From contig NW_026262745.1 in the NCBI RefSeq assembly GCF_021869535.1, forward strand, positions 47,802,001 through 47,866,000: a stretch of 64,000 nt of DNA. The letters are read 5' to 3'. This document shows positions 9,280 through 59,600 of the stretch, piece by piece; position 1 is the stretch's first letter; every line of letters begins with the position of its first letter. Source of the stretch: Mytilus californianus (lineage: Eukaryota). The notes beneath the pieces are model-generated. The model saw only the letters and a list, made by a program, of their open reading frames with translations, made no database searches and had not been told where the DNA came from. Both the position numbers and the translations under genes were made by a program.

Positions 9280-12200
9280 CTGTAATAAATAGTTGAAGCA
9301 GGCTATATCCATGAATTTAGAATGCGTTTAAAAGTAAAATAAATAATAAGCTTACAAAATGATGTAAAGTTAACCTCAGCATAAGGTAAGGAGAACAATT
9401 ACTATTCCTTAATAATACTATACTGTTGATACATTGTTATTTGAGGGGTTCTAATTTTCATGGATTTCGTGAAAATATGTGGACCAAACAAATAGGTTTT
9501 CAACGAAACACAGATTTTCAATTAAATTATATGCAGGTTTTATTTCAGTCTGCAAAATCAGTTATACACGAACAAACAATGTTAGTCAATCTGTGAAAAG
9601 TACTCAATCCATCTTCAATTATTTGAATATTACTGGTTGTACCTCATCTTTTCAGTCTGTTTTTTTTACACAGTAAACCAAATTAGGAAACTATTTTCAT
9701 CCAATTTGAGCATGTATAGCGTATGACATTCAGCAGTAAAACTTAAAATCATCATCCCTGTGTTGCTGCTTTAACATGGTATACCTGAATTTTATACTTC
9801 TGAACATAATTACTTCTAACCTCAATTTGAAACAGTTCGTCCATCGTTGCCGAGTTGTGTTAACTGCATTATTTATATAATTTTAGGTGAACATACTTAC
9901 ACAACAAATACAGCTATAACAATCAGCAAGAAAACAACAAGTACAGTCAGACCAACAACAGTCATACTTGTTGCCTTTTCATCTAAAATTGACAAAATGA
10001 ATTGCACAAATTAAATATGTTAAAAAAAATGCTTGCATGTCAACATAGTGTTGAGATTTACAACATGTGCTATAAAAAATATATATTTTGATATCGCCAT
10101 TTCAATTATCCTCCATATGCTAGCCATCTTTTATAATGTTTTATTGTAGAAGCCATTTGTACGAAAACAAAAAAATAATGGCAGTTGATATTAAATTTAA
10201 AATTATGTTGTCTTTAATAACTATGATAAAACGTATAATTACGTGCTTTATTTGAATTGAAACACCATGTTAACACTTTTGCTACTCGTAATAATTCACG
10301 AATGTGAATATCATTCACATTCTTTACAAAATTTTCATTCTTAACAAGTCATTATTCATACACAATTTGAGCATTGATAGAATACAGAACTTTTGTTTCC
10401 GTACCTTTTTGTGGTAGATGTGTTGTTGTATGTTTAGTCACTAGTGAAGTAGTCGATATCTCCACTGAATGTGTTGTAGTCATGGATGAATCGATTGCAG
10501 CTCTGGATGTCTTTATTGTTTCCAAGGTTGTAGATATTTCATAAGGTATTACTGTGGAAATTGTTGTTGATCTTGATGTTGTTGTCGTTTGTTTTGCTAT
10601 TGTCGCTGATCTTGACGGTATTGTTGTGAAGATTGTTGCTATTGTCGCTGATCTTGACGGTATTGTTGTGAAGATTGTTGCTATTGTCGCTGATCTTGAC
10701 GGTATTGTTGTGAAGATTGTTGTATTTGATTTTGCTTTTGTCGTCGATCTTGATGTTATTGTCGTTAATGTTGTTGGTTTTGGTACTTGCAACGTACATG
10801 GGAGTAGAAATTGTATAATTAAACATTAATTTTGGTTATGTTATATCACTGTTTGTTTCTAATTTTGTTATAATTACTGTATAGCTTATTCTATATTAAT
10901 GCACTTGGCGTTTCTGTAAACAGCTCTAATTTGGTGCTCAGGCTACACTGATTAATAACTGGCATGTTTACATTAATACATTTTAGTTTTAACAATTTAC
11001 AATGTAGTTTATATATAATTTTATTATAATCAGAGTTTCCGTCGCAATTTTCGAATTTGGCGAAAAATAATAAAACTGTGTTGAGAAAAAAAATTATTTG
11101 CGAAAAACTTTGGCTAAAGAATTAACAAACAAGATAAAAAACATTGCTTATTTTATTCAGAAAAAAGTTATATCACAAAAACACTGAACTCCGAGGAAAA
11201 TTCAAAACGGAAAGTCCCTAATCAAATGTCAATATCAAAAGCACAAACACATCAAACGAATGGACAACAACTGTCATATTCTTGACTTGGTACAGGCATT
11301 TTCTTATGCAGAAAATGGTGGATTGAACCTGGTTTTATAGCGCTAAACCTCTCACACTCAGAACACTCAACTAGATAGTACGTATCCGATAAATAGATCG
11401 AGGATGGATCACGACCTGATGATGTTTCGGATACAAACTAAATTATAACTATAATTTGATGTTCATTCATTAAAATATTGATTATAGAATAGAGATGTGG
11501 GAATAATGTTCAATGTAATTTCACGTTACATGTTATATTAGATTACAGATTTACATGAGACGATAACGCTGCGTAAAGCAATTAAGGTAGTTTGCAACAA
11601 GGAAAATAAGTTGGCGAAAAAGTGGTGGCAAAATTATCTTTTGGCGAAAGAGGGCTATAAAGGAAATGAACTCAGGTATAAATTCTACTATACTCCGTGT
11701 TTTTCGATGCTCAAAAGGACAACTCACTAAGAGAGTTTTAACTGCTATACTCATTCCGTATTTTGGTCGATGATGTAAAACATGTTACATAGTTTGTAAC
11801 AGACAATTTTGTCTTGATCGTCCTATTTACACTAAGACAAAAAATACAAGACCGGTTCAAAAGAATCTATATCATTCGTTTATCTAAATTATTTCGTCTT
11901 TGTTTAGTTTTAAGATGATACATTTTTAGTTTCGACGTTCGATTTATATCATAGATTTTTCGATTACAAAAATATTGTAGTATTTTAACAAATGATTATC
12001 TATGTTTAATTATTGTAAAGAAGTGAGACAAAACTATGGATAATAAATTGAATATATTTTTCAAATAAGAAAATACAATAACAAAGGTTGATCCTTAATA
12101 CGTACGTTCACACCCAGGACTGAAACCATTATCAGAAGTTTCTCCAGTCGGACAAGGAAGCTCTGATCCTGAAATATATATACAACTTATACATGTGCAT

Positions 12201-16199: not shown

Positions 16200-16670
16200 G
16201 TAAAAAAAACAAAAATACCGAACTCCACGGAAAATTCAAAACGGAAAGTCCCTTATCAAATGGCAAAATCAAAAGCTCAAACACACCAAACGAATGGAAA
16301 TCAACTGTCATATTCCTGACTTCGTACAGACATTTCCTTATGTAGAAAATGGTGTATTAAACCTGGTTTTATAGCTAGCTAAACCTCGCACTTGTATGAC
16401 AGTCACATAAAATTACATTATTGACAACAATGTTTGAACAGATATAAACAGATATAATAGGTAAACATATCAATAATAGGGGTACATCAGTACACATTGT
16501 TTTATAACCTTAATCACTATAAAAACAAACAAATATGTCAACAAAGAAAAACAAAATAGCATATAAACAAAGCACATATTAGGCAAAAATATAAGACAAG
16601 AATACAAGAAATGACCATATCACAATAACACAATGGCGGGATGTATATGTACCGAGCCACGCCAAAAGAA
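16200..16670. mobile_element. Abundant dispersed repeat; other copies near 140-620 (inverted), 1105-1230, 11180-11360 and 38370-38680 (inverted)
   Basis: aataccgaactcc..ggaaaattcaaaacggaaagtccct..caactgtcatattcctgacttggtacaggcatt..gaaaatggtgg recurs. Confidence 0.85.
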
Positions 16671-29309: not shown

Positions 29310-32300
29310 GTAAGTGATGAAACATATTTGAAATCTTAGTTGCATCATTATATTATTTGATTATAAACTATAGTGGTCACTTTGTATAATTCTTTTTAAG
29401 GACCCTTGTAATATATACATGTATATATATTCAAAATTGCAACAAGCTTGATAAAAACAATTATTTTACTACTTTGACTTTTTAATAGAATGTATTCTTT
29501 TTGACAACTTAAAAGAATTTTAAAAGGGAAATATTCAGTTCCATCATTTCGGTTTATTTCTATATGAAATATCTTTTTATGTACTGTTTATGTACTTTAA
29601 TAATGTCAAAGAGAGCATAATCAGTTTGCGGAGTAAAATTCCCTTTACATGTTCAGCATATTGTCCCATAAATCAATTTTGCGTTTTGCAAATCGTTTAG
29701 GCATTTTTATTGATGCATCTTAAGAAGTCTTTCTCTTGGGATTCGTTTCTCCTTAGCCAATATATTAGTTAACAAGGACGATTTTTGCATCTTCATACTT
29801 TTTCCCTTACATGTTAATCAAGATTTCAAAACAGACTGTTCAAATTCGGTTGTTGTCTATGACTGTTAATTATTGTTGTTTCCTGGATAGATTGATACAA
29901 AATAAAAAGATATTGTTCATCCTTGATGAGTTTTGCAGTTATGTGTAAATTATTGCGTTTACGATGATTATTTCTTACGACAAGTTTTATGTCGTTTTCA
30001 TTCGTAGTAGGTAATTTGCGATGTCTCGTCCTCAAGATACGAATGTTGAATGATTCGACATTAAAAGCTAGCGATCGCATGATCCATTTAAAGTAAAATT
30101 TACTTATATTGTGTACGGTATTGAATGTTCTTCCTATAGACCTATATATGTTGGTGAAACTAGACAAAGCCTAAACGAAAGAATGAATGATTAAAAGTAT
30201 AATGTGCATGATTCTGCTTACAATACTTTCTATATAACTATTTTAACTAGCCTTAATGTCTCTATTTCTGACAGGTTTTTGTTGCCTGAGACAAAAAATG
30301 TAGCTCTTAACATATCACGAAAGTCGTCAGATCTGCTAATTTAGCAAATTTTTCCTTTTCCCGATTGTGATATCATGACAGAGTGAATTCGCATTGTACA
30401 TGATGCTTATGCATGTACTTGTCTGACAGTTTATAGTTTGGTTCCTGTGAATAGTTGGCATATCAGTAATATTAAAACATTTCTTTTTGTAAAACATGTA
30501 TACATTTGTAGCAGGAGACGCTTATCCTTTCGAGACATATGGTCCCGCTCCTTTTAGAAGTCACTCAATTGCCTGCGATTTGTTGTTTCACTTAAGTGTG
30601 TATGTCCTTAAATTATAAGAATTGAAAATATGGTAACTACTGCTGTCACTAATGTTTTTCAATGTTACCGTCAGAATCCACTATATCACTATAAATTATC
30701 TTGTAGTTGATCCTTGCTTGGAAGAAAACTATCAAACTTTAGATGATTGGCAACGATCAGTTAATAATACAATCATTGGCAATTTGTGTGACAATCGGCT
30801 GACTCCAGGATGGTACCGTCCAATTAGTCTCGTAGGAAATACAATGCCAACAGAATGTACACAAAACGGATTCAGATGCGGAACTACTTATCCAATATGG
30901 ATGAATGGTAGGAAATATTATAAAAAAAAAACAAGAAAACATAATAGCGTATTTACCTGATTTAGGAATCTATTATGCTATTTATTGTTTTCGTCAAAAG
31001 ACTTCTACAACTCCATTTTGCTGCACATAATTATATTCATGAAATTTCGTAAGCGATCATGCAAATCCTGGCTATTGCATTAAAAACACGTTTCGTTAAT
31101 GATTCTCTATTTTGCCAACCGACTTTACATTAAAAATGAATAGTTGTCAACTATTTCGTAATGTATTAAACGCCAGTTTGATTTGGGGAATATTTCGGGA
31201 AAACTTTTTAAAACCCTTACTGTAATTTCATTTATAATACCAAATACAAGAACGTCTATTAACACGAAAACACGATCACAAATGCAAATATTAATATCCT
31301 GTTATACACAACACAAAACCCTAAAAGTATGAATAGTTTATGAACCGCCCTGTTACCAGTTTCGGCCTAACCATATGGAAACAGTCTACAGTCAGTTTAT
31401 TAGAGCTGTTGAAATCCTGCTGTGAAATTTAATAGACAAGTTGTGCAACATCGTTATGTGCCAGTTATTAAGTAACAGTTCGTACCAAAATATGCTACTA
31501 CCATGTAAGTAATGAGAGAAAACATTAATATATGCACCATCCATGGAAATATTTCTGTAAAGGCTTATTAAAATTTTTTAAAAGCAAAATTGCTATATCA
31601 GTTGTTGAATATGTGATAAGAGTCAAAAGGGAAACAAAGTAAATGTAAGATGATTGTTGATATAAGATATAAGTTATATAAATGTTAAGTTTTGCTTTAC
31701 ATTTCAGTCTTTTTTTTTTTTTTTGTAACAGGATCGTACCCTTTGTCTGGCAAAATTGCAGATGTTACGGCCTGTGTAGCAAACTTCAACGGAGGCTGCT
31801 GTACCAGTTCATATGACATCCGGGTTAAAAATTGTGACAGTTTTTACATATATAACTTACAAGCTACAAGTGGATGCTACCAATCCTATTGTTTCGGTGA
31901 GATATTACATTTGTTAGATTACTTCCTTATATATTCTTTTTATATGTGTTTTGTTCATGAATGTATAGTAGAAACTTCTTGTTGATAGAAGCACTGGATA
32001 GAAAGTTACAAAAATGATTAATCATAAACAGTCACATGTTACAAAAAACTGGAACTTATATATACAGTGCAAAGATGCGGCATAGGAAATCAAAGACATA
32101 CAAGAATGTTGAACCCAATTATTGATCATATGAAAATGACTTGTATTTCTAAATGCCTTTACCATTGAACGAGACGACACAATATTATTACTGTCCGTAT
32201 CCAGTTATTACTTTATGTGTTAACATATTTGATCTTTCAATGGTTATTTTGAATAAAATTTTTGATTCGACAGAAGTCTAAATAGTTACATAATATATAT

Positions 32301-35300
32301 ACGTTTTAGGTACTGAAGTTAAATGTCCAGTGGGAGAAACCTCGGATAACGGAGGGTTTACACCAGGATGTGAATGTGCGTATTCAGTCGATTTAGGAAT
32401 ACATATATCATATTTACTTCTATTTAAAAAGAATAACAAATTAAAAGCAACAATGCTGTATTCCCTAGTCATAACTGTATGTTCACGTCTGGCTAATAAG
32501 TAGGCAATACACTTACAAAGAAACAGAAATACCGATTGGAATGAATATGAAAAAGAAGAAGAAATAAGGGACAATCAAACTCATAAGTGGCAAATAAACT
32601 AACAACGCCATGGCAAAATGGAAAAAGACCAAAAGACAAACAACTGTACACAAAACACATCACAGAAAACTAAAGACTGAGCAAAACGAACCCCACCAAA
32701 ACCCGGGGTTGATCTCAGGTGCTCCGGAAGGGTAAGCAGATCCTAATCCACACGTGGCACCCGTCTTATTGCTCATGTGAGTATAAACCCGGTGATCAGT
32801 CTTATTTGGTATGTCACATTCGCGGAAAAAAGAACAAGATTGTGGTAACGATAATTCGAACCTATCCGTCGTCATCTGTAAAACAGATATTCCATAACGG
32901 TCAACCAACTCGTGATGGCGTCCAAAAAAATTTCGAAGAATGATTTCAAATTTACCACTTGGAACTCTTGTTTTAATAGCTTCCTTGTGAGCAGCAACCC
33001 TCTATCAAGGAAATCATGATAGAAAATACAAGCCCTTGAATATCGTATCAACTGGGACATATAAACGCTATATGCAGGCGCTACTGGAATGTTGCTACAT
33101 AGAAATAGAAATAGAAAGTTCACAATTGGGAGACTGAAATCATCTCTTAAAGTAAAGTTTTGTTTTCAACCGACCTTCATTGTCAATTTCGAGAATGTAA
33201 GTCAAGATATGAGGCATCTGTATCTGGTATATCGTTTATTTCAAGTTCGATCAGATAATTGCGTTCAACATAGTCACCAAACTTTGAGTTATTTAGCGAG
33301 AGAACATCATTTATAAATGGGAGAGTGAAGTTGAAGGATAACACTAACCTTTTTCCTGTATGAAGTCTGCCTCAAATGAGTAAAGGAACAAGTCGACAAA
33401 AAGAAGAGAACAGTTGGTTTCCATGAGAATGTCGATTGTTGTTTTTTTTTTGAAGTCTTCGAAACGTAACAAATATGTTGTCAACCAAGAAATCCATCAT
33501 CTTGATAATGTCAGTTTCAGAAAATCTGTTGTTCTTTATTTATTAAACAAAGCAGGACCAACTCTTTATGTGTTTTAGTTTCGAATGGGGAATGTGTAAA
33601 GTGTGAAAAAGTTAAATGTTTCAATACTATTGCAAGATCTACGAGTCTTAGATTGTATATACTCTTAAGATTTTGAATTTTTAAGTATCCACATCTAATT
33701 CACGCCACCTCTAGAATAGGTAGTTTCGTAAAAACTTTGAAGACCGGCTTTGATTGCTGATAATATTGATGTTAATAATTTAGAAGGTTTCAAAAAAACT
33801 TGTGGTAAAAGAGGAACTGTACCTCTGGTATCTTTCGTCCCTCTTTTACCACAGTGGATAAGTCTGAATATATACCGAAAGACTGAAAAAGACTGACTAA
33901 TTTATTCTCCCGTCGTTTAGGGGCTGTGCAGATCGAAATGACCGTTTCAGATCAAAATTGGTTTGCTTATGCAAACATTTTGTTATCAAAAATTAGAATT
34001 GAAAATCCTTTTACAAGTCATTTTACTCCTCCTCATAGTGCATTTCTAACTATGTACTAAATACAATTGTCTTTCTTTAAAAAATATGTAAAACTAAGAC
34101 CTGCATCAATGTCAACGTTTGTCTGAAAACCAACAAGTTTAAACATTTCCTAATTACCTTTTCAACAGAACTTTTTAATATTCTTTTACACACGACGCTA
34201 TTTAAGCTATAAAGAAATTTATCATATCAAAGATGTCTAATCATTATTTTTAAAAGGTCTCAATTCTGTGTTCCTATTTCATAGCATATAGGTCAACAAA
34301 TATAATGTTATCAAGCTATAAAATTTAAAAATGTAATCGTTTGTATTTGATATTTACATAACATATTAAGAACGACGAGATATATTCGACCATATGTTTT
34401 TTTCAAATAAATATTGTCCGATACTTACAAAAAAGAGGACCAATATAAAACTAGCTATGAGACAGTACCATATTAAAGCAGCCAATATTTAAAGGGACCT
34501 TTTTGAGAAATTCTGTTTTTGTTTTTGATTGTTTAGTTTATTAGGAGTTTTGTTTCCATAATTGAAAACAAATTCCTAAAATTATATAAAGCAAGCCAAT
34601 ATTGATATATATGTGAATAAATAAATATCCAGAAAGTGGACAAAAACATATTATATAAATTCTTTAGTCGACCCATGTCATAGCATCAACTACGAGGTAC
34701 TCATAGAAGAAATGAAACGATCATCAAACTATACACTGCAATCCGATGATGTGGCCATAGAGGACAGTCGATTAACAGCGGGATGGTATAGAATCGATAG
34801 TGCAACCGGAAATGACATAGTCAATGAGAGCGTTTATATGATGCAGTGTGGTACTTTATATCCACTGTGGATGGACGGTTAGTACTGTTTTATTTATAAA
34901 TTGAATATACAACATGTAGATGGTCTTTTGTTTGATTTTGGTGTTTGATAGCTGTCTGATTGAGGTTACTTCATTTTGACGTTGTAACATGTCGTATTGA
35001 TAATTATTTAAAATTAATCAATGCTATTTTTCACGGCTAACATGTAAAATATTAAGTACCGTTACATTAACTTAGAATTTAAACCATTTGATTTAATAAT
35101 AAAGTTAAGGGCATTTTTACAATAGTACTGCATACTTATCTATCCAAGTCCCAACTTTAAAGCATTAATACTTTAGGAAACTTACCAGATGTTTCTGATA
35201 AGACAGTTGACAGAAAAGTATGTAAATCAGGAGTATCAAGTATATGTGACCAGACGTATGACATAAAAGTTCGCAATTGTGGTAGCTACAGAACCTATTA

Positions 35301-37667: not shown

Positions 37668-39780
37668 AGATACGACTACTAATTAATTCTTTGAGAAAGA
37701 TATTGATGAAGGATTCAAAACAATGCGACATAATAATTTGTAGTAAGAAGAAACTTTTGTTTATTATTAAGTTAACTGGTATGTATATTTTTCAAGTTGA
37801 TATTATATACATAGTTCCACTTTCAATAATGTTTAGAAACTATCGTGATGTGATTATCATATAGACATGCGTGCAATTTACAAGTGTAAATTGATTTGAA
37901 TGTATTTGATTTATAAATAGTTGCAAGCAATAATTTGTCAAATCGAAAACAATTTCTTAAAAAAATTATCATATGAAAAACGTTAAGGTGGTCTTCGGTT
38001 CGGATTATTACCTTGTTTTTTTAGAATTTGTAATTTTTTATTTGTCTTAACATTGATTGGGTATTCATGGTAGTGAAAACTAATGCTTTTCCTCTCAGAA
38101 AAAAAGCTTCTTTTAATTCAGATATCATTGTGCGTGCTTGAATCTCATATATCCTAGGCAACTTAAGATGAAGGATACTTCCAATCTTCTCTGACTATAT
38201 CCGGTATTGGCTTTTCTCATTGTTGAAGGCCGTACGGTGACCTATAGTTGTTAATTTCTGTGTCATTTGGTCTCTCGTGGAGAGTTGTCTCATTGGCAAT
38301 CATACCACATCTTCTTATTTTTATAATTATCCTCGATATTGACACAAATGGATGACTTCAATGTTTCTGTTTTCTCATTACAATGTTGACTGCTGTATCC
38401 CAGTTTTTGGCATTTCTACCTATTATGTCTGTTTGTTTTGCTTACACATTGTTGTCAATATAATGTAATTCTATGCGATTGTCATACAAAGGAGATGTTA
38501 GCTAGCTGAAAACCTAGTTTAATTCACCATTTTCTACATAAGGAAATGCCTGTACCAAGTCAGGAATCTGACAGTTCTTTTCCATTCGTTTGATGTGTTT
38601 GAGCTTTTGAATTTGCCATTTTATAAAAGACTTTCGGTTTTGAATTTCCTTTGGAGTTCGGTATTTTTGTTATTTTACTTTTTTGTCAAACTAGAACCAA
38701 TAACAAACATGATGATTTTGAATTTACAATCGCCAATTTCCCATTTCTCTTCAGTAAGGTACCATATGTCCTAACGTTTGTCGTTTGATCGAGTATGGAG
38801 TTGCATGGCGGGTGATGAATGCATAGTAGGAGACGCTTACTCTGTCAACGCACCAGGTTGCTCTCTTTTTGGAGTTTATGCAATATTAACAGTTTTGTTT
38901 GTTAGTTTGGTATGTCTTCTTAATTGATTTGTATGATTTTATAATCAATAAACTTCTTTAGCCTTACATGACACTTTTTATGGTTACTCTTTTTGAGTTT
39001 TCAGGTTTATCCTCATTCTAGAGTTCAAGCTTTTGCTTTGCACATGTTCGACGTATCAACCGACGCAATAATAATAAAAATAATAATAATTATAAAAATA
39101 CGACATCGTATACGAACACGATTATTATTATAATGTTAATAATAATGACTATACTAGTAACAATGAGAAATCGTTTCTATTTTTTTAAAACGTAGAATAT
39201 TCATAGAAACCAACTTTGAACAAAGAAATTAAGTGCATTTTCAATGGATGCTTTAAAGATGTGTTGCGCAAAAAAATTTCACAACTTGTTTACACATGTT
39301 ACATGTATTTTACTTGTAAAATGATAAGATAAATAATTATCTTTTTTAAAAGATTGAGGAACGTTGTCTGTTTCAATTTTTATTTGTCAAATCAAACCTG
39401 TTTTTGGTTATGTTAAAAAACAAATGTTATGTGTTTAGGTTCCGTCATCATTGGCCTAAGCTAAAATATATATGCACTAAAACTACTATTATATGTATGT
39501 AGATGTCGTTTGACTCATATTATTGTCACTTTAGATGAAGATTAACAGAAACGATTATGCATTTTGCAATTTCTGTATCTGTATTTTTATTGTATTGTGT
39601 TGTTTATTATTCATTATCTTGTTTATGTAACACAATTGTTAACAAAATTCCAGCTAAACATAAAAAAGTTTTAATTTTTGAAAGTTCGAAAATTGCATGA
39701 CGTTCTTGCATGAAACCGTTATTAGCAAAAGCGAGGGCTTCTTGGATACAAAACAAAAATAATTAAGATCAATAGATTAA

Positions 39781-44231: not shown

Positions 44232-45959
44232 TTAAGGCTATTTAATACGATTTTATTCATTGAAGTTTACAGGCATAGTTTTTTTATATAAAAAACACAA
44301 ACAAAACAAGATTTATTAATTAATTGGACTGAACAGACAACACTAATCATGTTGCATTTGCATTTAACGTACTGTAGGAAAATTACAGAATCAAAAACAA
44401 AATGAACAATAACCTGAATATTGTGAAGAACCTTATGCGTCTAGGTCTGTTCGATTAGAAGTAATGCAACAAGCTGTTTAAAAAACAAATTTTTGGAAGA
44501 GTTCACTTACTGTTTTCATATGGTCTGGTCTTTACGGATCTATTTCACGATTACTGACAGATTAAAAACATCAAATATATATAACAAGAAGTTTTTGTGC
44601 AGAACATTCATCGCTCAGTTGTAAATAAGGTCTGTATAGGGTTTTGATTCACTCATTTATAAAATAAAAAATCTTTATTTTGAAAAGTTTAATTTTATAA
44701 AACTATCCTATAATGTTATTTTAATGCTAAAAAATATAATAAATAAATAATTAAATGATATACTGCCATTTAATCGGTCCGTTCCCAATGCAATAAGGTA
44801 ACTGTATATATCAGTTTGAGTACTGTTTAACTATCATTAAGTTGAATATATTTAGACTCGTCCAATTCAGGGGAATAAGGCTTCTGTATGTGGTTTTTTG
44901 TGTACTTTTCTTATATTTTTGACGGTTTGTAAGTCAGTTAAAGTTCAATGATTAAGTTAATATAGACATTAAAAGACCTCCTCACAAAAAGGACTGTTCA
45001 AATCCTATCATTAAACTTTTACTATTACAAAATGGTGGAATAAATCTGGTTTAAAAGCTTGCTTAAGATTCCACCTGTATGACGGTTGTTTATACATCTG
45101 TGATGAAAATAAGAAGAAAAATATAATAGTTAAACTAAACTATCTAGTATATTTCGTTAAAACAAAAGAAAGACTTAACAAACGGATTTGCGGTCAAAGG
45201 TCAGACATAAACAACAGTGAAAATGACATTCATTTGGTTGATGTTTTACACATCTATCCAATTGAAATTGAAATACATTAGGTAAAGCTGAAGCTGCCTC
45301 ATATCTACACGTCACATCTAGAAATTGACAATGATTGTCGATTTAGAACAAAATTTACTTAAAAATTAGTTCAACATTCCAATTGTAAACTTTCGATTTC
45401 TATGTAGCAACATTCATGCAGCAATTGCATTTTCAATCCAGAAAAGCGCTTCGGACGCATGGAAAAAAGTAAAATATATCTTGAAAAGAATTTGAGGTCT
45501 GCTAAAGCATTGATCATGTATGGTTTTAACGTACGGTCATATGTAAGTCCTTGAGTTTCCAAGCAGCTAAATTATATGACGAAAAATTTAGAAAGATAAG
45601 GAAAATTTTAGGGTTGAGGGTGGATGAAATCAATAATGACCCTTGGAGATCTGCAGCTTTATTTGACAGACAAACTGAATTATCAGGTCAAAATAAGACG
45701 TCATTTGCAAAAACATCAAACTCAGGTCCAAATTATTTTCAAAGGAAGGCCCAGCATCAGTGTCAATTCCCAAACGGATATTGCTGGGCCTTATGTAAAT
45801 CAGGGGAATGTACAGCAAAGTTTTGTAAACTTAAACACCAATGTGTACCTTGCAGCAAAAAAACACTGTACCCTTACATACCCAGAAGAAAAAGGAAAAC
45901 AAGCAATTTTTGTCAAAACTTCCAACACCAATAAAAGTTGAAAATCTTAAACATTTTCA

Positions 45960-47400
45960 GCAGGTTATGATACCCAGTTGACAGATAAATTGATTCATGG
46001 TTTTTCTTTTGGATTTTCAATCAATTCTTGTTTTTCTACATCAATAAATAAAGGCATTGTTCCTCCAAATCATATAAGTGCAAGGGATTATCATGTTGTG
46101 CAATCAAAACTGAATAAAGAGATTGAAGCAGGTAGAGTTAAGTGTCCTTTTACAACCCCCCTTTCCCTCTTTTTGTATGCTCCCCTTTGGGTTTAGTTCC
46201 AAAAAAAGAACCCAATTCTAATCGATTCATACATGATTTGTCGTATCCTAAGGGTAACTCTGTAAACTCTGGTATTTCCCCAGAATTTTCGGCTGTACAA
46301 TACCAAACCATTGAGACAGTTATAGATTTGGTCCAATCTTATGTCTCAAAATGTCTGATGTCCAAAACAGATATTGAGCATGCTTTTCGCTTAATTCCAA
46401 CTGCTAAAAAAGATCATCATCTATTAGGTTTTCATTGGGACAAACAATTTTTTTATGATGCCTCCTTTCCAATTGAGGCTTCTTCCTCGTGTCAGCTGTT
46501 TGAGTCTTTTTCTACAGCCCTCCACTGGATTTTAAACGCTAAATTTCAAATGTATGGGGTATCACACTTGTAAGTTGATTTGTTCTTTGTCGGCAAAGCT
46601 GGCTCTAATGAATGCTATAGAGCATTACAAACTTTTCTTTGTCTTGCCGATAAATTGGGGGTACCCATCAAATCAGACAAAACACAACGTCCTACTACTT
46701 GCATTACTATCTACGGTGTTGAAATTGATTCTACACAGATGGCTGCTCATTTATCTATGGAAAGAATTGAAAAAAATGTTGCTATTACTAAGTAAATACA
46801 AATGTAAACGCAGTATCTCAGTTAGAGAAATACAATACCTATTGGGTCTTTTAAATTTTGCATGCGGAGTAATCAAACCTGAAAGAGCCTTTTTACGGAG
46901 GCTTTTTGACCTGACTATAGGCCATACATCTCCTCATTAAAGACTCAATCTTAATTCTGATGCAAGATTAGATCTGAAGTTATGGTACAATTTTATTGAA
47001 AATTACAATGGTAAACAAAGAATGGGTTTCATCAGGTTTTTATAAAACTTTTTTCTGATGCTGCAGGTACATATGGTGGTTTTGCTGCCAGTTTTTGGCA
47101 GCAAATGGTTTTCAGGTGAATGGCCACCGGAGTTAGTCGATTTACACATTACAGTGAAAGAACTTCCCGATTGTTTTTGCTATTGGCAAATCATAAAATA
47201 CTATTTTTAACAGATAATTCAGCTGTTGCTGAAATTATAAATAAAACATCATCTCGTTGAAAAGAGTATAATGAAATTGATTCGAAGATTAGTGCTAGCT
47301 GCATTAAAGTACAACATCTATTTTAGAGCCAAACATATTCCTGGGAAAACAAACGTTATTTGTGACTTGTTGTCTCGTTTTTCGTTTTAGGAAGCTCATC
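45960..47400 (+). pseudogene. RT-RNase H of the YR retrotransposon
   Basis: ORF fragments 45978, 46142, 46580 and 46554 in shifting frames; the YLDD region is mutated. Confidence 0.85.
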
Positions 47401-47455
47401 AGATTGCTCCTTGGTTAAGTTCAACTCCTGTGGCCATTCCACCTCACTTTTTGCA

Positions 47456-48368
47456 TCTATGACTGATAGGCTTGTTACGGCATCATTATCTGACGCTTCT
47501 GTGTCATCATATAAAAGAATGTTAAGTGTGTATTCAAATTTCTGTCAGCAATTTTTTCCAGGAGTTATTCTACTTCCATCTTCTCATGTCATGGTTGCTC
47601 AGTTTATTTCACATTTGTTTATTCAAAATTATCAACCATCTACAATTGCATCATACATATCAGTCATCAGTTTTATACATACAATTAATTTTTACAGGAT
47701 CCAACAGACACATTTTTTATTAAAAAGATGTTGAAAGGTACAAAACAGTTGAGACATTCTGTTGATACACGGTTGCCAATAACCTATGATATTCTTGTAA
47801 AATTAGTTTAGGCTTTACCAAAAGTAATAGTTGGCATTTATAATCAAGTTTTGTTAAAGGCTATGATGTTTATAGCTTATTTTTGTTTCTTACGTATTGG
47901 AGAAATTGCAGTTAAAACTAAGTCTGAATTCTATAGAGTAATTCAAAGGGAAGATATAAAGTTTGAAAGAGTAAATGGTCATGTGAGCAATATGACAATA
48001 ACTATGAAGTTTTACAAACATAGTAATCTGCAAAGTGAGACATTATCAATAGCTAGACGCCCTGAACATTATCTCTGTCCTGTTAAAGCTATTGAGGAAT
48101 AAAAAGTTTACATAATTGTCCACACGGTCTTTTATTTCGATTTAAATATGGAAAACCTGTTTCAGGTTTTTATTTCAATTCTTCATTAAAAAGTTTGTTA
48201 AATTTCGTAGGTGTAGACACCAATTTGTATAAAGGTCACAGTTTCAGAATTGGAGCTGCAACATTTTCAGCTGCCAGAGGTGTGCCTTTAGCCTTGATCC
48301 AAAACATGGGTAGATGGAAGGCAAAGGCTTTTCAACATTATATACGACTTGATAATTTTCACACTTAA
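47456..48368 (+). pseudogene. Tyrosine recombinase of the YR retrotransposon
   Basis: Catalytic R (FLRIGE), HSFR, GRW and YIR motifs; broken by stops and frameshifts. Confidence 0.88.
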
Positions 48369-48401
48369 ATTTAATAATCACAGTAGTTTACTCAGTGCAT
48401 T

Positions 48402-52846: not shown

Positions 52847-53550
52847 ATATGTAAAACATTTTTAAATATCATAATCAAAATGTGTGTGATCTGTAAATGT
52901 AAGCATCGTCTTAGTCATACATCCATAATATATATATATTTATAAATAGAAGTCTGAATAGCCTTCGTCAGTATCAATAATTTTAACAATACAGTATTGT
53001 TTAAATTATTTACACTGTCGAAGACTAAAATTGAGAATGGAAATGGGGAATGTGTCAAAGAGACAACAACCCGACCATAGAACAGACAACAGCAGAAGGT
53101 CACCAACAGGTCTTCAATGCAGCGAGAAATTCCCGCACCCGGAGGCGTCCTTCAGCTGGCCCCTAAACAAATATATATACTAGTTCAGTGATAATGAACG
53201 CCATACTAAACTCCAAATTGTACACAAGAAACTAAAATTAAAAATAATACAAGACTAACAAAGGCTAGAGGCTCCTGACTTGGGACAGGCGCAAAAATGC
53301 GGCGGGGTTAAACATGTTTATGAGATCTCAACCCTCCCCCTATACCTCTAGCCGATGTAGAAAAGTAAACGCATTACAATACGCACATTAAAATTCAGTT
53401 CAAGAGAAGTCCGAGTCTGATGTCAGAAGATGTAACCGTAGAAAATAAACAAAATGACAATAATACATAAATAACAACAGACTACTAGCAGTTAACTGAC
53501 ATGCCAGCTCCAGACTTCAATTAAACTGATTGAAAGATTATGTCTTCATC

Positions 53551-53611
53551 ATATGAATATCAGGCACAATCCTTCCCGTTAGGGGTTGAGTATCATACCA
53601 TCATAACATAT
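53551..53611 (-). promoter_or_regulatory. Type II SECIS element (selenocysteine insertion sequence)
   Basis: RNA AUAUG-UU-AUGAU-GGUAUGAUACU-CAA-CCCC-UAAC-GGG-A-AGGAUUGUGCC-UGAU-AUU-CAUAU: helix I, AUGA/GA core, 11-bp helix II with one mismatch, apical AA and mini-stem; about 55 nt after the ORF end. Confidence 0.82.
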
Positions 53612-53665
53612 ATGAGAAGAACATAACCCGTGTCATGCCAACAACTGGTTTTTAAATAAATGTGT

Positions 53666-56638
53666 TTAGTGCCGATGCAAAGACCCGAATCAATATTAAC
53701 GCCAAAATATGCAATCTTTAATGACCTGACAACAGTATCGTAACTATATCCCTTCTTAATAAGTGTATTTAAAGGTTTTGTTAGCTTCAGAGGTGAATAC
53801 TGACATTTTTGTGCTTTATAAAGAATATTTCCATAAAAAATTGGATGTGAAATACCTGAACGTATAAGAAGTCTGCATGTTGAGCTATATTTACGAATGA
53901 TGTCCTTATACCGATGATAAAATTTAGTAAATGTTTTGACTAGTTTGAGATATCGAAAACCCTGGTGTAATAATTTTTCAGTAATACATTGTTACATATA
54001 TGAGCGAATCGTACAAGTTGAGATATATAAACACCGTAAGATGGTGACAAGGGAACGTCACCATCTAAAAATGGATAATTAACGATAGGAAATGAAAAAT
54101 CATCTCTTTTATCATATATTTTAGTATTAAGCTTTCCATTAATGATATAGATATCAAGATCGAGGAAAGGGCAGTGGTCATTGTTAGTATTAGCTTTATT
54201 TAAAGTAAGTTCAACAGGATAAATTTCTTTAGTATACATACTGAAGTCGTCATTATTGGGAGCCAAAATATCATCCAAATATCTAAAAGTATTATTAAAT
54301 TTGTGTATCAGATGTTGTTTCGATGGGTCTTTGCTGATTTTTGTCATAAATTGTTACTCATAGCAAAACAAAAAAAGGTCCGCAATACGTGGTGCACAGT
54401 TAGTCCCCGTTGGAATTCCGATAACCTGACGATATACGGAATCTCCAAAGCGAACAAAAATGTTATCTAGTAAAAATTCAAAGGCATATATAGTATCAAA
54501 GCATGTCCAATTGACATAGTTTTTTTGTTTATTGCTACTAAAAAATGACCTAAAAGAGTTTGAACATATATATTCACATTCTGACTTTTTAAATGCCCAT
54601 TTAATTAGGTGTGTGAATTATTTCTTAATGAGAATGTAAGGCAATGTGGTATATAGGGTAGAAAAATCAAAACTTTGAACAGATTCAAAATCACCAATAT
54701 ATGCATGTAATTTATCAAGTACTTCCAACGAGTACTTGACACTCCAAAAGTAATTAATTCCACTATTTTCGAAGGCCTTATTTGAACAATTTATTATCAG
54801 GTTTTTGATTGTACCAAGTGTACTGGTAAGAAGAATAGACAATTTAGTAGTGGAACAATGGCTTGAAGACGAAATGAATCTATATTTGTAAGGTGTTTTG
54901 TGTAGCTTCGGAAGCCAATACATAGTTGGGACTTTCATTGTATTTGGTTCTGCTTGTAAAGCGGTAGCTAAAAGTTTATGTTTCTAACAGATGTCGTTTT
55001 CTGAAAATGGAGTCAGTTGGAATGTTGGTGAATTGGTGATTTCTTTTTTCAGAACCTCAATGTAAAATTTACGTAAAACAATAATAATATTATTAGCAGC
55101 TTTATCGGCCGGGACAAAAACAAATTCCTTGGCTAGTTCTTTTAGTTTATGTTTGATACGAGAAATAGGTTTATTGTGGTTATTGTTAAGAGTAAAATGT
55201 CCTTTAAAATGTTGAATACGTATCAACTATGTTCATTACTGAATTAAAAAAAGAGTCCAAAGATTTTTTGTCAGCTTTTTCCCGATTTATCCATTTCAAA
55301 CAGTAAGTATGGAGTGATTCGTGGATGATATTACGACACTCATTCCAATTAAAAATTGACGGGGGACGATATTTAGGTCCTTTACTGAGGAATAATTTTA
55401 ACTCTCGGTCTTGAACGATGTTAAGATCTCCTGTTATAACATGGGAAATGGGTCCATAAATGTATTCGGAATTACTGCAATTACATGAAGTAGGTGTATT
55501 TTCACTGATATTAACATCTTTACACAATTGGCTATAATTAAACACAAATTTCCGGGTAGGTTTCTTGTAAATATAACAAATAAGAGGGAGCTCAGTATTA
55601 TCAAAATATCCCGGAATTTGTTCTTTAACAGAATGGTCGTTAAAAATACCGGCAATATTTACAAAATCAAAAACCTTTATTGACATACTTTATTTTAATA
55701 AACTGTTTTTTATGATCTTCAGGGCGATCAATTTTGGGAAACAGTTTAGAATAACAATATGCCATTATAATTTGAACGATTTCATACTTAGGACTGCTAT
55801 ATGAAATTGTGTTGCAATCCTCTAAAATTTTATTTAACTTATTAACCGGTAATGAACAGAGCTTTGTTAACAGATAATGTCTGCCGTTGTTTTTTGAAAT
55901 AGAAATTAGGTCCGAAATATTGGTATTATTGCTCCGAAATTTTCTTTGATTGCGATTTTTTCTACGACCATGAGAACGGTTTTTACGAACAGTTTGAGAA
56001 ACTATATCCAAAATGTTAACAGAATCGGTTCTTGATATATTACCAATTCCCATGATATTATCATTAAGACCGAGAGGGTAGACTGTCTGTAATTTTTTAA
56101 TCCAATTTAATTCAATTATTATCCGTGATCGTACAAACTTTGAATGAGATTCACCAGGCTGCTTATTTACTACTTCTAAAGGTTGAACTGCTAAATATTT
56201 AATAGGATGATTGTGCTTCTTAAGGTGTTGATAAATGATACTTTTGAATTTATTGGGTCTTTTAAAACGATACAGATGTTCTTGAGTGCGTTTAGATAAA
56301 TATCGTCCAGTTTCACCTACGTACTGAATACCGCATCCCGGTTTGTTTCATGTGAGTAAATAAATAATACTGTTTGTTTTTCAAGTTATATCAGTTTCAA
56401 AATTTAAATAAAATGTGCGACCATTAAACGTGGACCTTTCCGTATTGTTGGTGGAAAGACGGGGACATGTAAGTCATTTTTTGGCATGACACTTATCGAT
56501 AGAAGGGTAACCACGATTTTTATTGTTAAAAATGTTAGCGATGGTAGTATTTTTAGATAAGCGATTTTGAAGATTGAGACGTGTAGATACCCTTTGAACG
56601 AGTTTAGTATTTAATATTTTTCCATTTCTAAGCTTCAT
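53666..56638 (-). pseudogene. EN-RT polyprotein ORF of the Naiad element; three probable Sec (UGA) codons plus true lesions
   Basis: Starts at MKLRNGK (56638). In-frame TGA at 56476-74, 56383-81 and 56350-48. Frameshifts near 55670, 55220 and 53985; TAG at 54986-84; TAA near 54620 and 54355. Confidence 0.88.
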
Positions 56639-59600
56639 ATTTGTTTTTTGTTTGTGAATTATATTAGAAAGGAGCAAAGACTGGCGTCCAGAATATGAAC
56701 CAGCATACAATGAATTAAATTATGTAAAACTGATAAATCTGTTAACTATTTGTTAAGCCAATATATTTGTCAACACGATTTTATAACATCATCTTCGTAT
56801 ATAACCATCTTATATTAGTACCGTTGTGCAAATCTTTAGACTTATATATTTATAAATATATATAAATGATGTGTGTATATATCCCATAGTTTGTCAATTT
56901 ATGACAACTGCAACTAAAGTTGTTTAATTTCACATCATTCATATATATTGATGATGTTATGTCACTCAATAACCCACTTTTCAGTGAGTGCTTGCATCTC
57001 ACATATCATATAGAACTTGTAAGACGTTAGTTTTATCAATTGAATTGTTTCACATTCTTCACATGTTTTCATGTCGGGGCCTTTTATAGCCGACTTTACG
57101 GTATGGATTTTTCTCATTATTAAAGGCCGTATGGTTGCCTATAATTGCTTGCATCCACTTCTTTTGAACTTTGGTAGAAAGCTGTCGCATTGTAAATCAT
57201 ACTACATCTCCTTATTTTTATATTGAGATGAGAGATACTATTGACACTAAAAAGTCTGCTTTATCTTAATCTTTTCCTCGAAATTGACACGGAAGGATGA
57301 CTTCAAAATAGAATCTATAACAAACGTGTTGATTTCAATTTTCCATGGTTCATCTTCTAAACTCTCCTCAGTAGCCTACCCATTGCCCCGTAATAGGGCG
57401 TTTACTTATCTCAAGGTGTGCTCCTTATACCCAAAAAACAGATCCAACAGAGTGAGGAGGACGAACGACTGGAACCGACACTAAACAAGATTTACGGTCA
57501 CCATTATTAATTTGTTGATCACTAAGATATGTCTATGTTTCAACTGACTAGAGACATGTTTTTGCAGTATACCAGAATAGTCCTCTGATCAGTTATTTAA
57601 CCGACTGCGTCTTATTACCGATGGTGACTTTTTGACTAATTGTGGATAAGCATGGTGGTTGATATATGTATATCAGGAAGCACTTATCCTGTCGACGCAC
57701 CTGGTCTTGCTCCTGTTGGATACCATGCGATCTCTCAGATTTTATTTGTTACCTTTAGTTGCATTGTCTTGTTTGTGATTGATGAGATTTGAACATTCGT
57801 AAACCAATGTTACCTACATCATTGTACATTAAGTAGTCACGGATTGGATTTTTTCTTGAGTCCCTGTATATTCATTGCATATTGGCTATGTCAGTTTGCA
57901 TCAAGAAGTTTGCGTAACATTGTAAACATCTTTTTGGAGGGGTGCGATTAATTTATTTGTTGCTTTTAGTTATTGCAGATCTGTGTGTAAATCACTGTAT
58001 GATGTCTTACCGTCTTGTTAGACTCGGGCGGATTAAGACCTTATCACATTGTAGAATTCACGTTTACCGATTATAATGTGACCTTTAGATGTGTATTGTT
58101 ATTTGTGTCGTTGGAATGCTCTCTCATCTGACGCTTACCTTGCATCTATTTTGTTCCAACAATTGTCCCCAAACTCGTTTAAATAAGGAAACAGCAACAG
58201 GTACCGCACTCAACTCTTCAGAAGTTGTATGTACGTTGAGGCTATAACCAGATGATAGATAATTTGTGAGAAAGTAGAATTATTGTTGCCACGAAATAAT
58301 TTGTTACTAATGTTTGCATAAAACAAAGCACCAATATGCTTGTCCAAATATACAATAATAACTTAATATGTGGTGCCTACAATAAGTTTTTATCTTTAAA
58401 CAATAAAAAGAAGCAATTAAAAGTATTTTTGAAGACAATAACTATTCCTACATAATTTGCATATATACAAATACTTAAATGTGATTTCTCCGTTACATTT
58501 ATTTCCCTTGGTTTAGACTTCGAATGAAAATACTTCCAGACCTACTGTAAACGCTACGTTGATTTTATCATGTTATATTCATGAACAATATATATGATAG
58601 AAATCCTCGCTTTCCAAGATAATTGGAATTGACAAGAAATAATTCAAATGTTTCTAAAGGTTATTGGTATGAGAACTTGGCTGCCGACTTACAAACCTTA
58701 CACAAAATATTTTCGGACTGGTATTCGGTTTTAGAGTTAATCGGTCAGTATACACATCAATAACCTCTATAAAAATGTGTTCACTCCTTTTATCTTTTTG
58801 TTTCTAAAAAGATGTGCACAGCAGTGGTGCCTCAAATTAACGGAATATATCTAATCAAATGGAAAAAAACGTCAAATATGTTCCATACTGGCAAAACTGA
58901 CATCTCCTCTTATTGATGACTACAGAAAAATAAACGGTTCATTTCAGATGAAATAACAATGCCTGGTCAGGGATGTGTAATACTTTGATGATTGCGGGAT
59001 ATTAACGACTGAAAACCTTTCCAACGGGTAAAGCATTGTTACAATGAATTAACTTTGTAGACATAACATTTCAAGCTTGCAGATATACCGGTCAACTAAT
59101 ATCAAAATAAATGCCCATTTCATAATTTTCACTTCACTTATACTATGATTTTGATGTTCAAGACTCTATATATGTTGACCTCTAGATGTCTTTCTATTTT
59201 TGGGGTTTCTTTTAGTGTTTGTTTGCCAAAATCGTGCGATCATTCCCGATTTCGCCTTTTATTTAGATCATACCGATAGAGATGGCCTTGCAGATGCCTC
59301 AAGTTCAAGTTCCTATCCATGTATTTTTTGTTTCTATTATTAACTGTAAAACTGTCAAGTGAAGGCATTTAAATAATGGGACTTTCCCGATCAAAATGTA
59401 GATATGTTTTCGTTCGAATTAATTCTATTGGTTGTCTTTCATTGTGTCGATTTAATAGTTTCTATTTCAGAAACTAAAATGATTGAAGCATTTCACTTCA
59501 ATTATACATGCTATTATGAATTACGTATTGAATGAGTATGGGCTATTTAAAATATTGAAGTAATCGAAGCCTTACTCTTCAGATTTTACTATGAATTAGG

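Follow-up and report, generated by a model that had tools for sequence, protein, structure and literature searches.

In eukaryotes, UGA is recoded as selenocysteine (Sec) by a pathway in which a SECIS, SBP2 and eEFSec act. The closest described systems to the locus reported here are four Naiads, from two clams and two spiders, which carry three to four UGAs and one grade-A SECIS each, classed as type I (Craig et al. 2021, PMC8557442; here and below, our comparisons draw on the accessible parts of that paper). Thus, a single SECIS serving several UGAs is already known in this group. Naiads are Penelope-like retrotransposons whose diagnostic features are a finger, GIY-YIG, a KR-rich block, CxC, DKA and a reverse transcriptase (RT); a pseudo-LTR is common but not defining, several listed Naiads being without one, and the insertion-in-fingers domain is reduced in some (PMC8557442). 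The clade also includes Naiad_Mgal, Naiad_Mcor, Naiad_Mphi and Naiad_Bpla from mytilid hosts, but these are Cys-type, and the accessible text notes no SECIS for them (PMC8557442). The type 2 SECIS is represented by the Rfam family RF00031 (SECIS_1), with helix I, a UGAN/KGAW core, helix II, apical A's and a third helix (accessible parts of PMC3753652 and PMC2761289).

We analysed a stretch of 64,000 nucleotides of DNA (the window), which is AT-rich (GC 0.285–0.349) and has no long ORFs. On its minus strand lies a SECIS-like hairpin (53614→53550), and upstream of it on the same strand a broken ORF begins at an ATG at 56638 (Table 1). The ORF encodes, in this order, a CX4CxxC finger, an N-terminal GIY-YIG endonuclease, a KR-rich block, CxC, DKA and an RT, the YLDD of which lies at 54281–54270. 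The finger, C-HAKK-U-LT-C, precedes GIY-YIG and fits the CX2-5CxxC pattern of Naiads, whose KR-rich block, CxC and DKA are likewise present. The Naiad linkage of a GIY-YIG endonuclease to a C-terminal RT was recognized through the intact ORF of a related locus, L007, which is collinear with the element along its length (E 7e-138) and has the Pfam domains GIY-YIG and RVT_1. The element is tiled by the family proteins P0008 (93% identity, 9 members), P0018 (91%, 54 members) and P0057 (96%, 133 members). By eye, its endonuclease region is much closer to the clam elements Naiad_Mmer and Naiad_Scon than to Naiad_Mgal and Naiad_Mcor. Pfam gave nothing useful for the Naiad pieces among 11 window pieces and neither a GIY-YIG nor an RT match in P0057, P0008, P0018, P0065 and the L002 ORF; a PDB search with alignment A1 and an ESM Atlas search with P0018 gave no match and no usable match, respectively. 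Self-comparison revealed no upstream duplicate of 53300–56900 within the window, as a pseudo-LTR would provide.

Table 1 Features of the Naiad element and its putative SECIS, in window coordinates
Feature	Position	Strand	Evidence
Decayed Naiad ORF	53666..56638	-	tblastn of P0008, P0018 and P0057; L007 ORF match
In-frame TGA (U55), second Cys of CX4CxxC finger	56474..56476	-	W in P0008, P0009, P0012, P0035 and P0175
In-frame TGA (U86), first Cys of CCHH	56381..56383	-	TGA in L001–L003 DNA and both clam consensus elements
In-frame TGA (U97), Cys before GIY-YIG	56348..56350	-	TGA in L001–L004; UGA in four published Sec Naiads
DKA+8 codon, TTA here; probable fourth family UGA	55074..55076	-	P0018 ends one residue before; TGA in L001–L004
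Family stop codon TAA	53666..53668	-	C-terminus of P0057 (96% identity, 133 members), ...IDSLIGSLHRN
3′ UTR of element	53026..53665	-	Follows family stop; lower boundary by eye
Putative form-2 (type II) SECIS hairpin, whole	53550..53614	-	Rfam SECIS_1 positions 1–64/64, 27.8 bits; sole descriptor match in window
Helix I	AUAUG 53611–53607 with CAUAU 53555–53551	-	Sequence
5′ core AUGAU (putative kink-turn quartet strand)	53600..53604	-	Sequence; AUGA invariant in 5/5 aligned SECIS
3′ core UGAU (KGAW)	53559..53562	-	42 nt after A of AUGA to start, as in L001–L005
Helix II, enclosing apical region	53563..53599	-	9/10 counted pairs changed on both sides; 94% of cells paired
Apical CAA at relatives' AAA place	53586..53588	-	AAA 12 nt after AUGA in L001, L003, L005 and L006; aligns to Rfam consensus AAA
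Helix III mini-stem CCC-UAAC-GGG	53575..53584	-	15/15 cells paired; one C-G/U-A exchange

Four frameshifts (near 55672, 55222, 53985 and 53685) and three stops other than TGA (TAG 54986, TAA 54620 and TAA 54356) indicate that this genomic copy is dead, and its SECIS, being that of a pseudogene, serves no full-length protein here. The C-terminus of P0057 places the family stop at a TAA about 55 nt before the hairpin. The present copy lacks about 7 nt near 53685; the TAA is therefore out of frame, and the last frame enters the hairpin, stopping at a TGA at 53595–53593. An earlier note on this DNA had put the hairpin about 55 nt past the ORF end; this distance holds for the family stop, but not for the copy's own last frame, which ends inside the hairpin. 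The hairpin thus lies on the sense strand, 3′ of a family stop whose reading frame has since been lost; the published Naiad SECIS differ in lying 1–21 nt after the stop or overlapping it (PMC8557442). The family most likely belongs to Mytilus mussels. A protein from an NCBI gene model of Mytilus edulis, sulfotransferase 1A1-like (P0047), contains 55 residues that are 82% identical to the endonuclease (window 56033–56197, minus strand), which shows that this Naiad family, or a close one, is present in the M. edulis genome; the stretch in P0047 could be either an exonisation or an annotation error.

The letters of all the hairpin parts described in the earlier note (an AUAUG/CAUAU helix I, an AUGA..UGA core with tandem G-A potential, an 11-bp helix II with one mismatch, an apical CAA and a CCC-UAAC-GGG mini-stem) were found on the minus strand, which that note had left unstated. 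Helix I, of 6 bp in the descriptor match described below, closes the internal loop, and the core, UGAU opposite UGAU, follows the UGAN/KGAW rule with tandem G·A. The arms of helix II, GGUAUGAUACU (53599–53589) and AGGAUUGUGCC (53573–53563), pair at 10 of 11 positions, with three G-U pairs and one A·G mismatch, within the approximately 10–11 bp expected of a SECIS. In the apical triplet two A's are left, the first position being C; one further C, omitted earlier, separates the triplet from the arms of the mini-stem (CCC 53584–53582 and GGG 53577–53575, around UAAC). When compared with shuffled sequences, the minus-strand fold gave z-scores of −1.66 (61 nt), −1.86 (71 nt), −2.64 (81 nt) and −2.95 (101 nt). 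A reading on the plus strand was rejected, as its fold was no better than that of shuffles (z −0.96).

At the gathering level, Rfam returned no match in the 64-kb window. In E-value mode, SECIS_1 matched the hairpin over its full length at 27.8 bits, with an E-value of 0.021 on 4.5 kb and 0.3 on the whole window, which was the lowest among nine window matches and the only SECIS among them. Because the score lies under the 35-bit cut-off of RF00031, we regard the hairpin as an element that works like SECIS_1 rather than as an Rfam-grade member, from which it differs also in having CAA for AAA and a retrotransposon as its carrier. For the same reason, and with recoding a predicted function, the word "established" in the earlier note was too strong. 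A SECIS descriptor, written after the hairpin had been seen, matched once on both window strands, namely at this hairpin; it matched in 3 of 40 shuffled windows and in 1 of 3000 shuffled 3′ UTRs. A model built from four relatives alone placed the hairpin at the top of its matches in 98.5 kb, though with a weak score (15.4 bits, E 0.33; runner-up 11.3 bits). Another model, R1, matched only its own training families, so that its positives are circular and only its negatives count, and it found nothing in other loci. An exact 21-nt scan of genome contigs for sister copies returned none, none of 318 fetched proteins carries a translation through the hairpin, and two short hairpin motifs retrieved no paper in a full-text search.

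The sub-threshold score and the whole-window E-value would suit a hairpin formed by chance, with the upstream TGAs as ordinary nonsense decay of TGT or TGC in a dead element: the copy is indeed dead by its other stops and frameshifts, and a TGY codon needs one change to become TGA. The rarity of descriptor matches among shuffled UTRs speaks against this explanation, as do the related elements.

A scan of bacterial genome assemblies yielded 19 loci encoding relatives (L001–L019), which are apparently eukaryotic contamination; the assemblies with Penelope-like contigs include isolate genomes (L005, L006, L008 and L013). Sixteen of the loci, the most distant (L014, L015 and L017) being left out, were scanned with Rfam. 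SECIS_1 was found right after the RT ORF in L001–L004 (seven matches at 42.1–42.8 bits and one cut-off match at 32.5), L006 (39.3) and L005 (29.2); L001–L004 and L006 thus reach the 35-bit threshold. In L001–L004, tandem units recur every 3.5–3.8 kb; being copies of one family, these loci supply, together with L005 and L006, few independent positives. The other 10 scanned loci had no SECIS_1 match, a long 3′ flank being shown only in L007 (1099 nt), L009 (510 nt) and L011 (3805 nt); L007 and L009 have Cys at DKA+8. In an RT tree of 18 rows, which does not include the published clam and spider proteins, four SECIS-bearing rows lie on one side of a branch with support values of 95/96, and seven Cys-type or SECIS-less rows on the other. 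L007, 33% identical to P0001 and by eye resembling Naiad_Bpla, falls outside the SECIS-bearing branch. We relied on this tree rather than on one of 47 rows, which was made in quick mode, has long branches and labels P0057 as Sec-type only as a near-copy of the present element.

The SECIS of this copy, L001, L003, L005 and L006 could be aligned with no gaps between the cores. AAA stands exactly 12 nt after AUGA in the four others and, by eye, in the clam consensus elements; L006 has CGAC instead of KGAW on the 3′ core strand. Across the form-2 structure, 94.4% of 90 cells are paired and 14 of 18 pairs are changed on both sides, in a small set (five sequences, L001 and L003 near-identical) from which the structure itself was drawn, which favours it. 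None of 500 shuffles scored as high, and slid registers gave 40–57%. In helix I, 92% of cells are paired and four of five pairs are changed on both sides, and compensatory changes are present in helix II and in the apical mini-stem as well.

The mini-stem bears on the class of the element. SECISearch3 called all four published Naiad elements type I (PMC8557442), that is, without a third helix, and a mini-stem of only 3 bp would be compatible with that label here too. It pairs, however, in all five sequences, with one compensatory pair, and is also paired in the Rfam model. On visual inspection, a 3-bp stem in this register is available to the Naiad_Scon consensus, and one of 4 bp to Naiad_Mmer, so that calling these elements type I may reflect only how they were drawn; we consider it unlikely that type I is the right class for the mussel element.

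In eight of 10 SECIS sites examined in the relatives (L001:1500; L002:3105, 6943; L003:2546, 6384; L004:1797, 5338; L006:1068), the UGA of the core AUGA is the first in-frame TGA after the RT, which would place helix I within the coding sequence. The putative kink-turn UGA is probably the ORF stop in L001–L004 and L006, and the database proteins P0126 and P0143 end at the same residue as these ORFs.

Upstream, the 986 in-frame codons of this copy include three TGA, all at Cys sites, as well as 25 TGT/TGC and seven TGG. A fourth "U" in P0001 (U324) was discarded as an artefact, since it lies past a frameshift. Among 317 fetched relatives, 64 cover both the CCHH and the pre-GIY-YIG sites: 51 have C/C, 11 W/W and two other residues, with no mixed case. 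We read W as TGA translated under code 4, because the DNA of the L001 family, which P0183 and P0191 match, carries TGA at these sites. At the finger site, the 11 W/W relatives have W in five cases and C in three, three being unreadable. Relatives still have W/TGA at all three positions at identities as low as 52% (P0009), and L002 combines an otherwise open frame of more than 1070 codons, TGA at these sites and a 42.8-bit SECIS. On these grounds, a chance origin of the hairpin, with the TGAs as nonsense decay, is in our judgement hardly credible. With UGAs kept across the family, an Rfam-grade SECIS in the same place in relatives and covariation that extends to the mini-stem, the tie that the earlier note drew between a form-2 SECIS and the UGAs upstream is supported.

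Two further sites vary among relatives; the sequences of L005 and L006 do not reach the UGA sites. The DKA anchor is present in 18 of the first 173 proteins, of which five, P0018 among them, terminate precisely at +7, and the remaining 13 carry Cys at +8. Since the TTA of this copy is one change away from TGA and P0018 ends just before DKA+8, the family probably carries a UGA there and so four in all, the stop being judged by where a protein ends and not by DNA. At the CxC site, 32 proteins have both anchors (7 more were dropped for want of the second): 23 end exactly before the first Cys, seven read on and two end elsewhere. This Cys is TGA in L001–L004 (L001:3446; L002:1321, 5051; L003:654, 4492; L004:3446, 6845); it is TGT in the window (55485) and Cys in both clam consensus elements, and the accessible Naiad Sec-site list does not contain the CxC site (PMC8557442). 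Mutual exclusion of Sec at CxC and DKA+8 was considered and rejected, since both codons are TGA in L001–L004. In the L001/L002 family, a fifth in-frame TGA falls outside the Cys positions (L002:3722–6994, residue 345), at a place that by eye is Tyr in the window; an unconstrained UGA of this kind has been reported in Naiad_Scon (PMC8557442). Judging from these codons, two sites of the clade, CCHH and pre-GIY-YIG, look fixed, and the finger, CxC and DKA+8 sites switch between Cys and Sec. The pattern would be consistent with a true advantage at two of the sites or, equally, with a gate on dosage.

Alternatively, leaky read-through or an altered code might place Cys or Trp at the UGAs, with the hairpin acting in RT template recognition, RNA stability or termination. 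Gene callers do render these UGAs as W, families differ at several sites in having Cys or UGA, and the core UGA probably serves as ORF stop in L001–L004 and L006. The TGAs, however, stand at Cys positions, Trp being encoded by TGG. Moreover, the hairpin keeps SECIS-specific letters and spacing, not pairing alone, and no such hairpin was found in the Cys-type Naiads shown to have a 3′ flank, which depend on template recognition as well. We therefore consider such a reading very improbable. The hairpin is, very probably, a genuine form-2 SECIS of a selenoprotein-encoding Naiad family.

Whether the hairpin of this particular copy would still function is a separate matter, compatible with that conclusion. 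CAA, the A·G mismatch and a tight internal loop may have disabled it, as its 27.8 bits, against 39–43 in relatives, would suggest. The copy differs from the family proteins at 4–9% of residues, so one or two changes are expected within 65 nt; CAA and the A·G mismatch are probably such post-insertion decay. The earlier proposal that CAA is a decayed AAA fits with AAA in all four other aligned SECIS, which come from other families, and by eye in both clam elements. The AAA/G apical motif has been described as essential (PMC2761289, accessible part). On the other hand, the two unpaired A's, the core and the spacing are intact, and chimeras described in the accessible part of the same paper showed the apical region to have a minor influence on efficiency (PMC2761289). 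Loss of function in this copy thus stands at slightly less than an even chance.

An intact copy of the family would comprise a single ORF with UGA at three, probably four, conserved Cys positions. We propose that the SECIS, about 55 nt after the stop, forms a kink-turn. From established SECIS biology, it would be expected to recruit the host's SBP2 or SBP2L and the eEFSec–Sec-tRNA machinery, so that the UGAs 1.5–2.9 kb upstream would be recoded as selenocysteine, giving one multi-Sec protein. Because every UGA precedes the RT core, no RT would be made without recoding. The use of one SECIS for three UGAs, which the earlier note called unusual, is borne out as a single SECIS facing probably four UGAs in the family; as a peculiarity it had already been published for Naiads (PMC8557442).

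Like the published selenoprotein Naiads, this element has several UGAs at conserved Cys positions, among them that before GIY-YIG, and a SECIS after the ORF end. With Naiad_Mmer and Naiad_Scon it shares the arrangement of domains, UGA both at the first Cys of CCHH and at the pre-GIY-YIG Cys, a probable UGA or stop at DKA+8 in the family, and one post-ORF SECIS with the AAA position 12 nt after AUGA (PMC8557442). It differs from them in an extra UGA at the second finger Cys (Cys in both clams), in helix II letters that are unrelated, in support for form 2 where type I was published, in being a dead copy and in its probable mussel host. The spider elements Naiad_Sdum and Naiad_Smim likewise have UGA before GIY-YIG and, as is probable for the present family, at DKA+8, and one SECIS for three to four UGAs, and Naiad_Sdum has UGA at the second finger Cys; they differ in their reported independent origin, a reduced IFD and Cys at the first CCHH position (PMC8557442). 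Our literature search, with most subscription journals, Repbase and Dfam outside its scope, yielded Craig et al. 2021 as the one relevant paper and found no Sec Naiad family with a Mytilus-type host. This host group is probably unreported. Within the same scope and the accessible parts of the papers, we found no covariation support for a form-2 Naiad SECIS, no Sec site at CxC in relatives and no stop codon formed by the SECIS-core UGA.

The present locus therefore extends a known oddity, a retrotransposon borrowing the host selenocysteine machinery, rather than presenting a new one. Its contributions are a probable mussel family together with form-2 covariation, further Sec sites, indications of family-to-family variation in Sec positions and, in relatives, a stop inside the SECIS core. 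Annotation pipelines would take such ORFs for pseudogenes, and searches for selenoproteins can be misled by their SECIS. Mussels in which copies are numerous could serve to test directly whether selenium controls retrotransposition. They could also serve to test the donation of SECIS by transposons to host genes, a possibility that the accessible text of PMC8557442 brings up without testing it. A broader reading, which we regard as doubtful, is that selenoprotein Naiads, rather than being four isolated families, form a clade that is both old and large and has an abundant family in Mytilus. With Sec fixed at the CCHH and pre-GIY-YIG sites and switching at the finger, CxC and DKA+8 sites, the UGAs would act mainly as a selenium-dependent gate on RT synthesis. 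Under this reading, 5′-truncated copies keep the 3′ end, and the family would thus scatter ready-made form-2 SECIS through mussel genomes, some of them captured by host 3′ UTRs or competing for SBP2.

The window contains other decayed elements. Further Naiad pieces, of the Cys-type lineage, lie at 32630–33790 on the minus strand (71–74% DNA identity to L012 and L018) and at 56917–57018, 57268–57507 and 30072–30233 on the plus strand; the Rfam scan of the window found no SECIS near them. At 45530–48370 (plus strand), a decayed element, which we take to be DIRS-like, contains an RT-like ORF (46142–46573), a phage-integrase SAM-like domain (47366–47734; PF13495, E 3.7e-4) and a tyrosine-recombinase-like C-terminus near 48230–48370. 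A dispersed repeat family occupies 1106–1272, 11175–11341, 16209–16375, 38509–38689 and 386–616; as 11360–11154 matches the L007 3′ UTR at 69%, these repeats are probably 3′ ends of another Naiad family. Finally, a 42-nt tandem repeat (10579–10800) lies within an open frame of 157 codons (10352–10825, minus strand).
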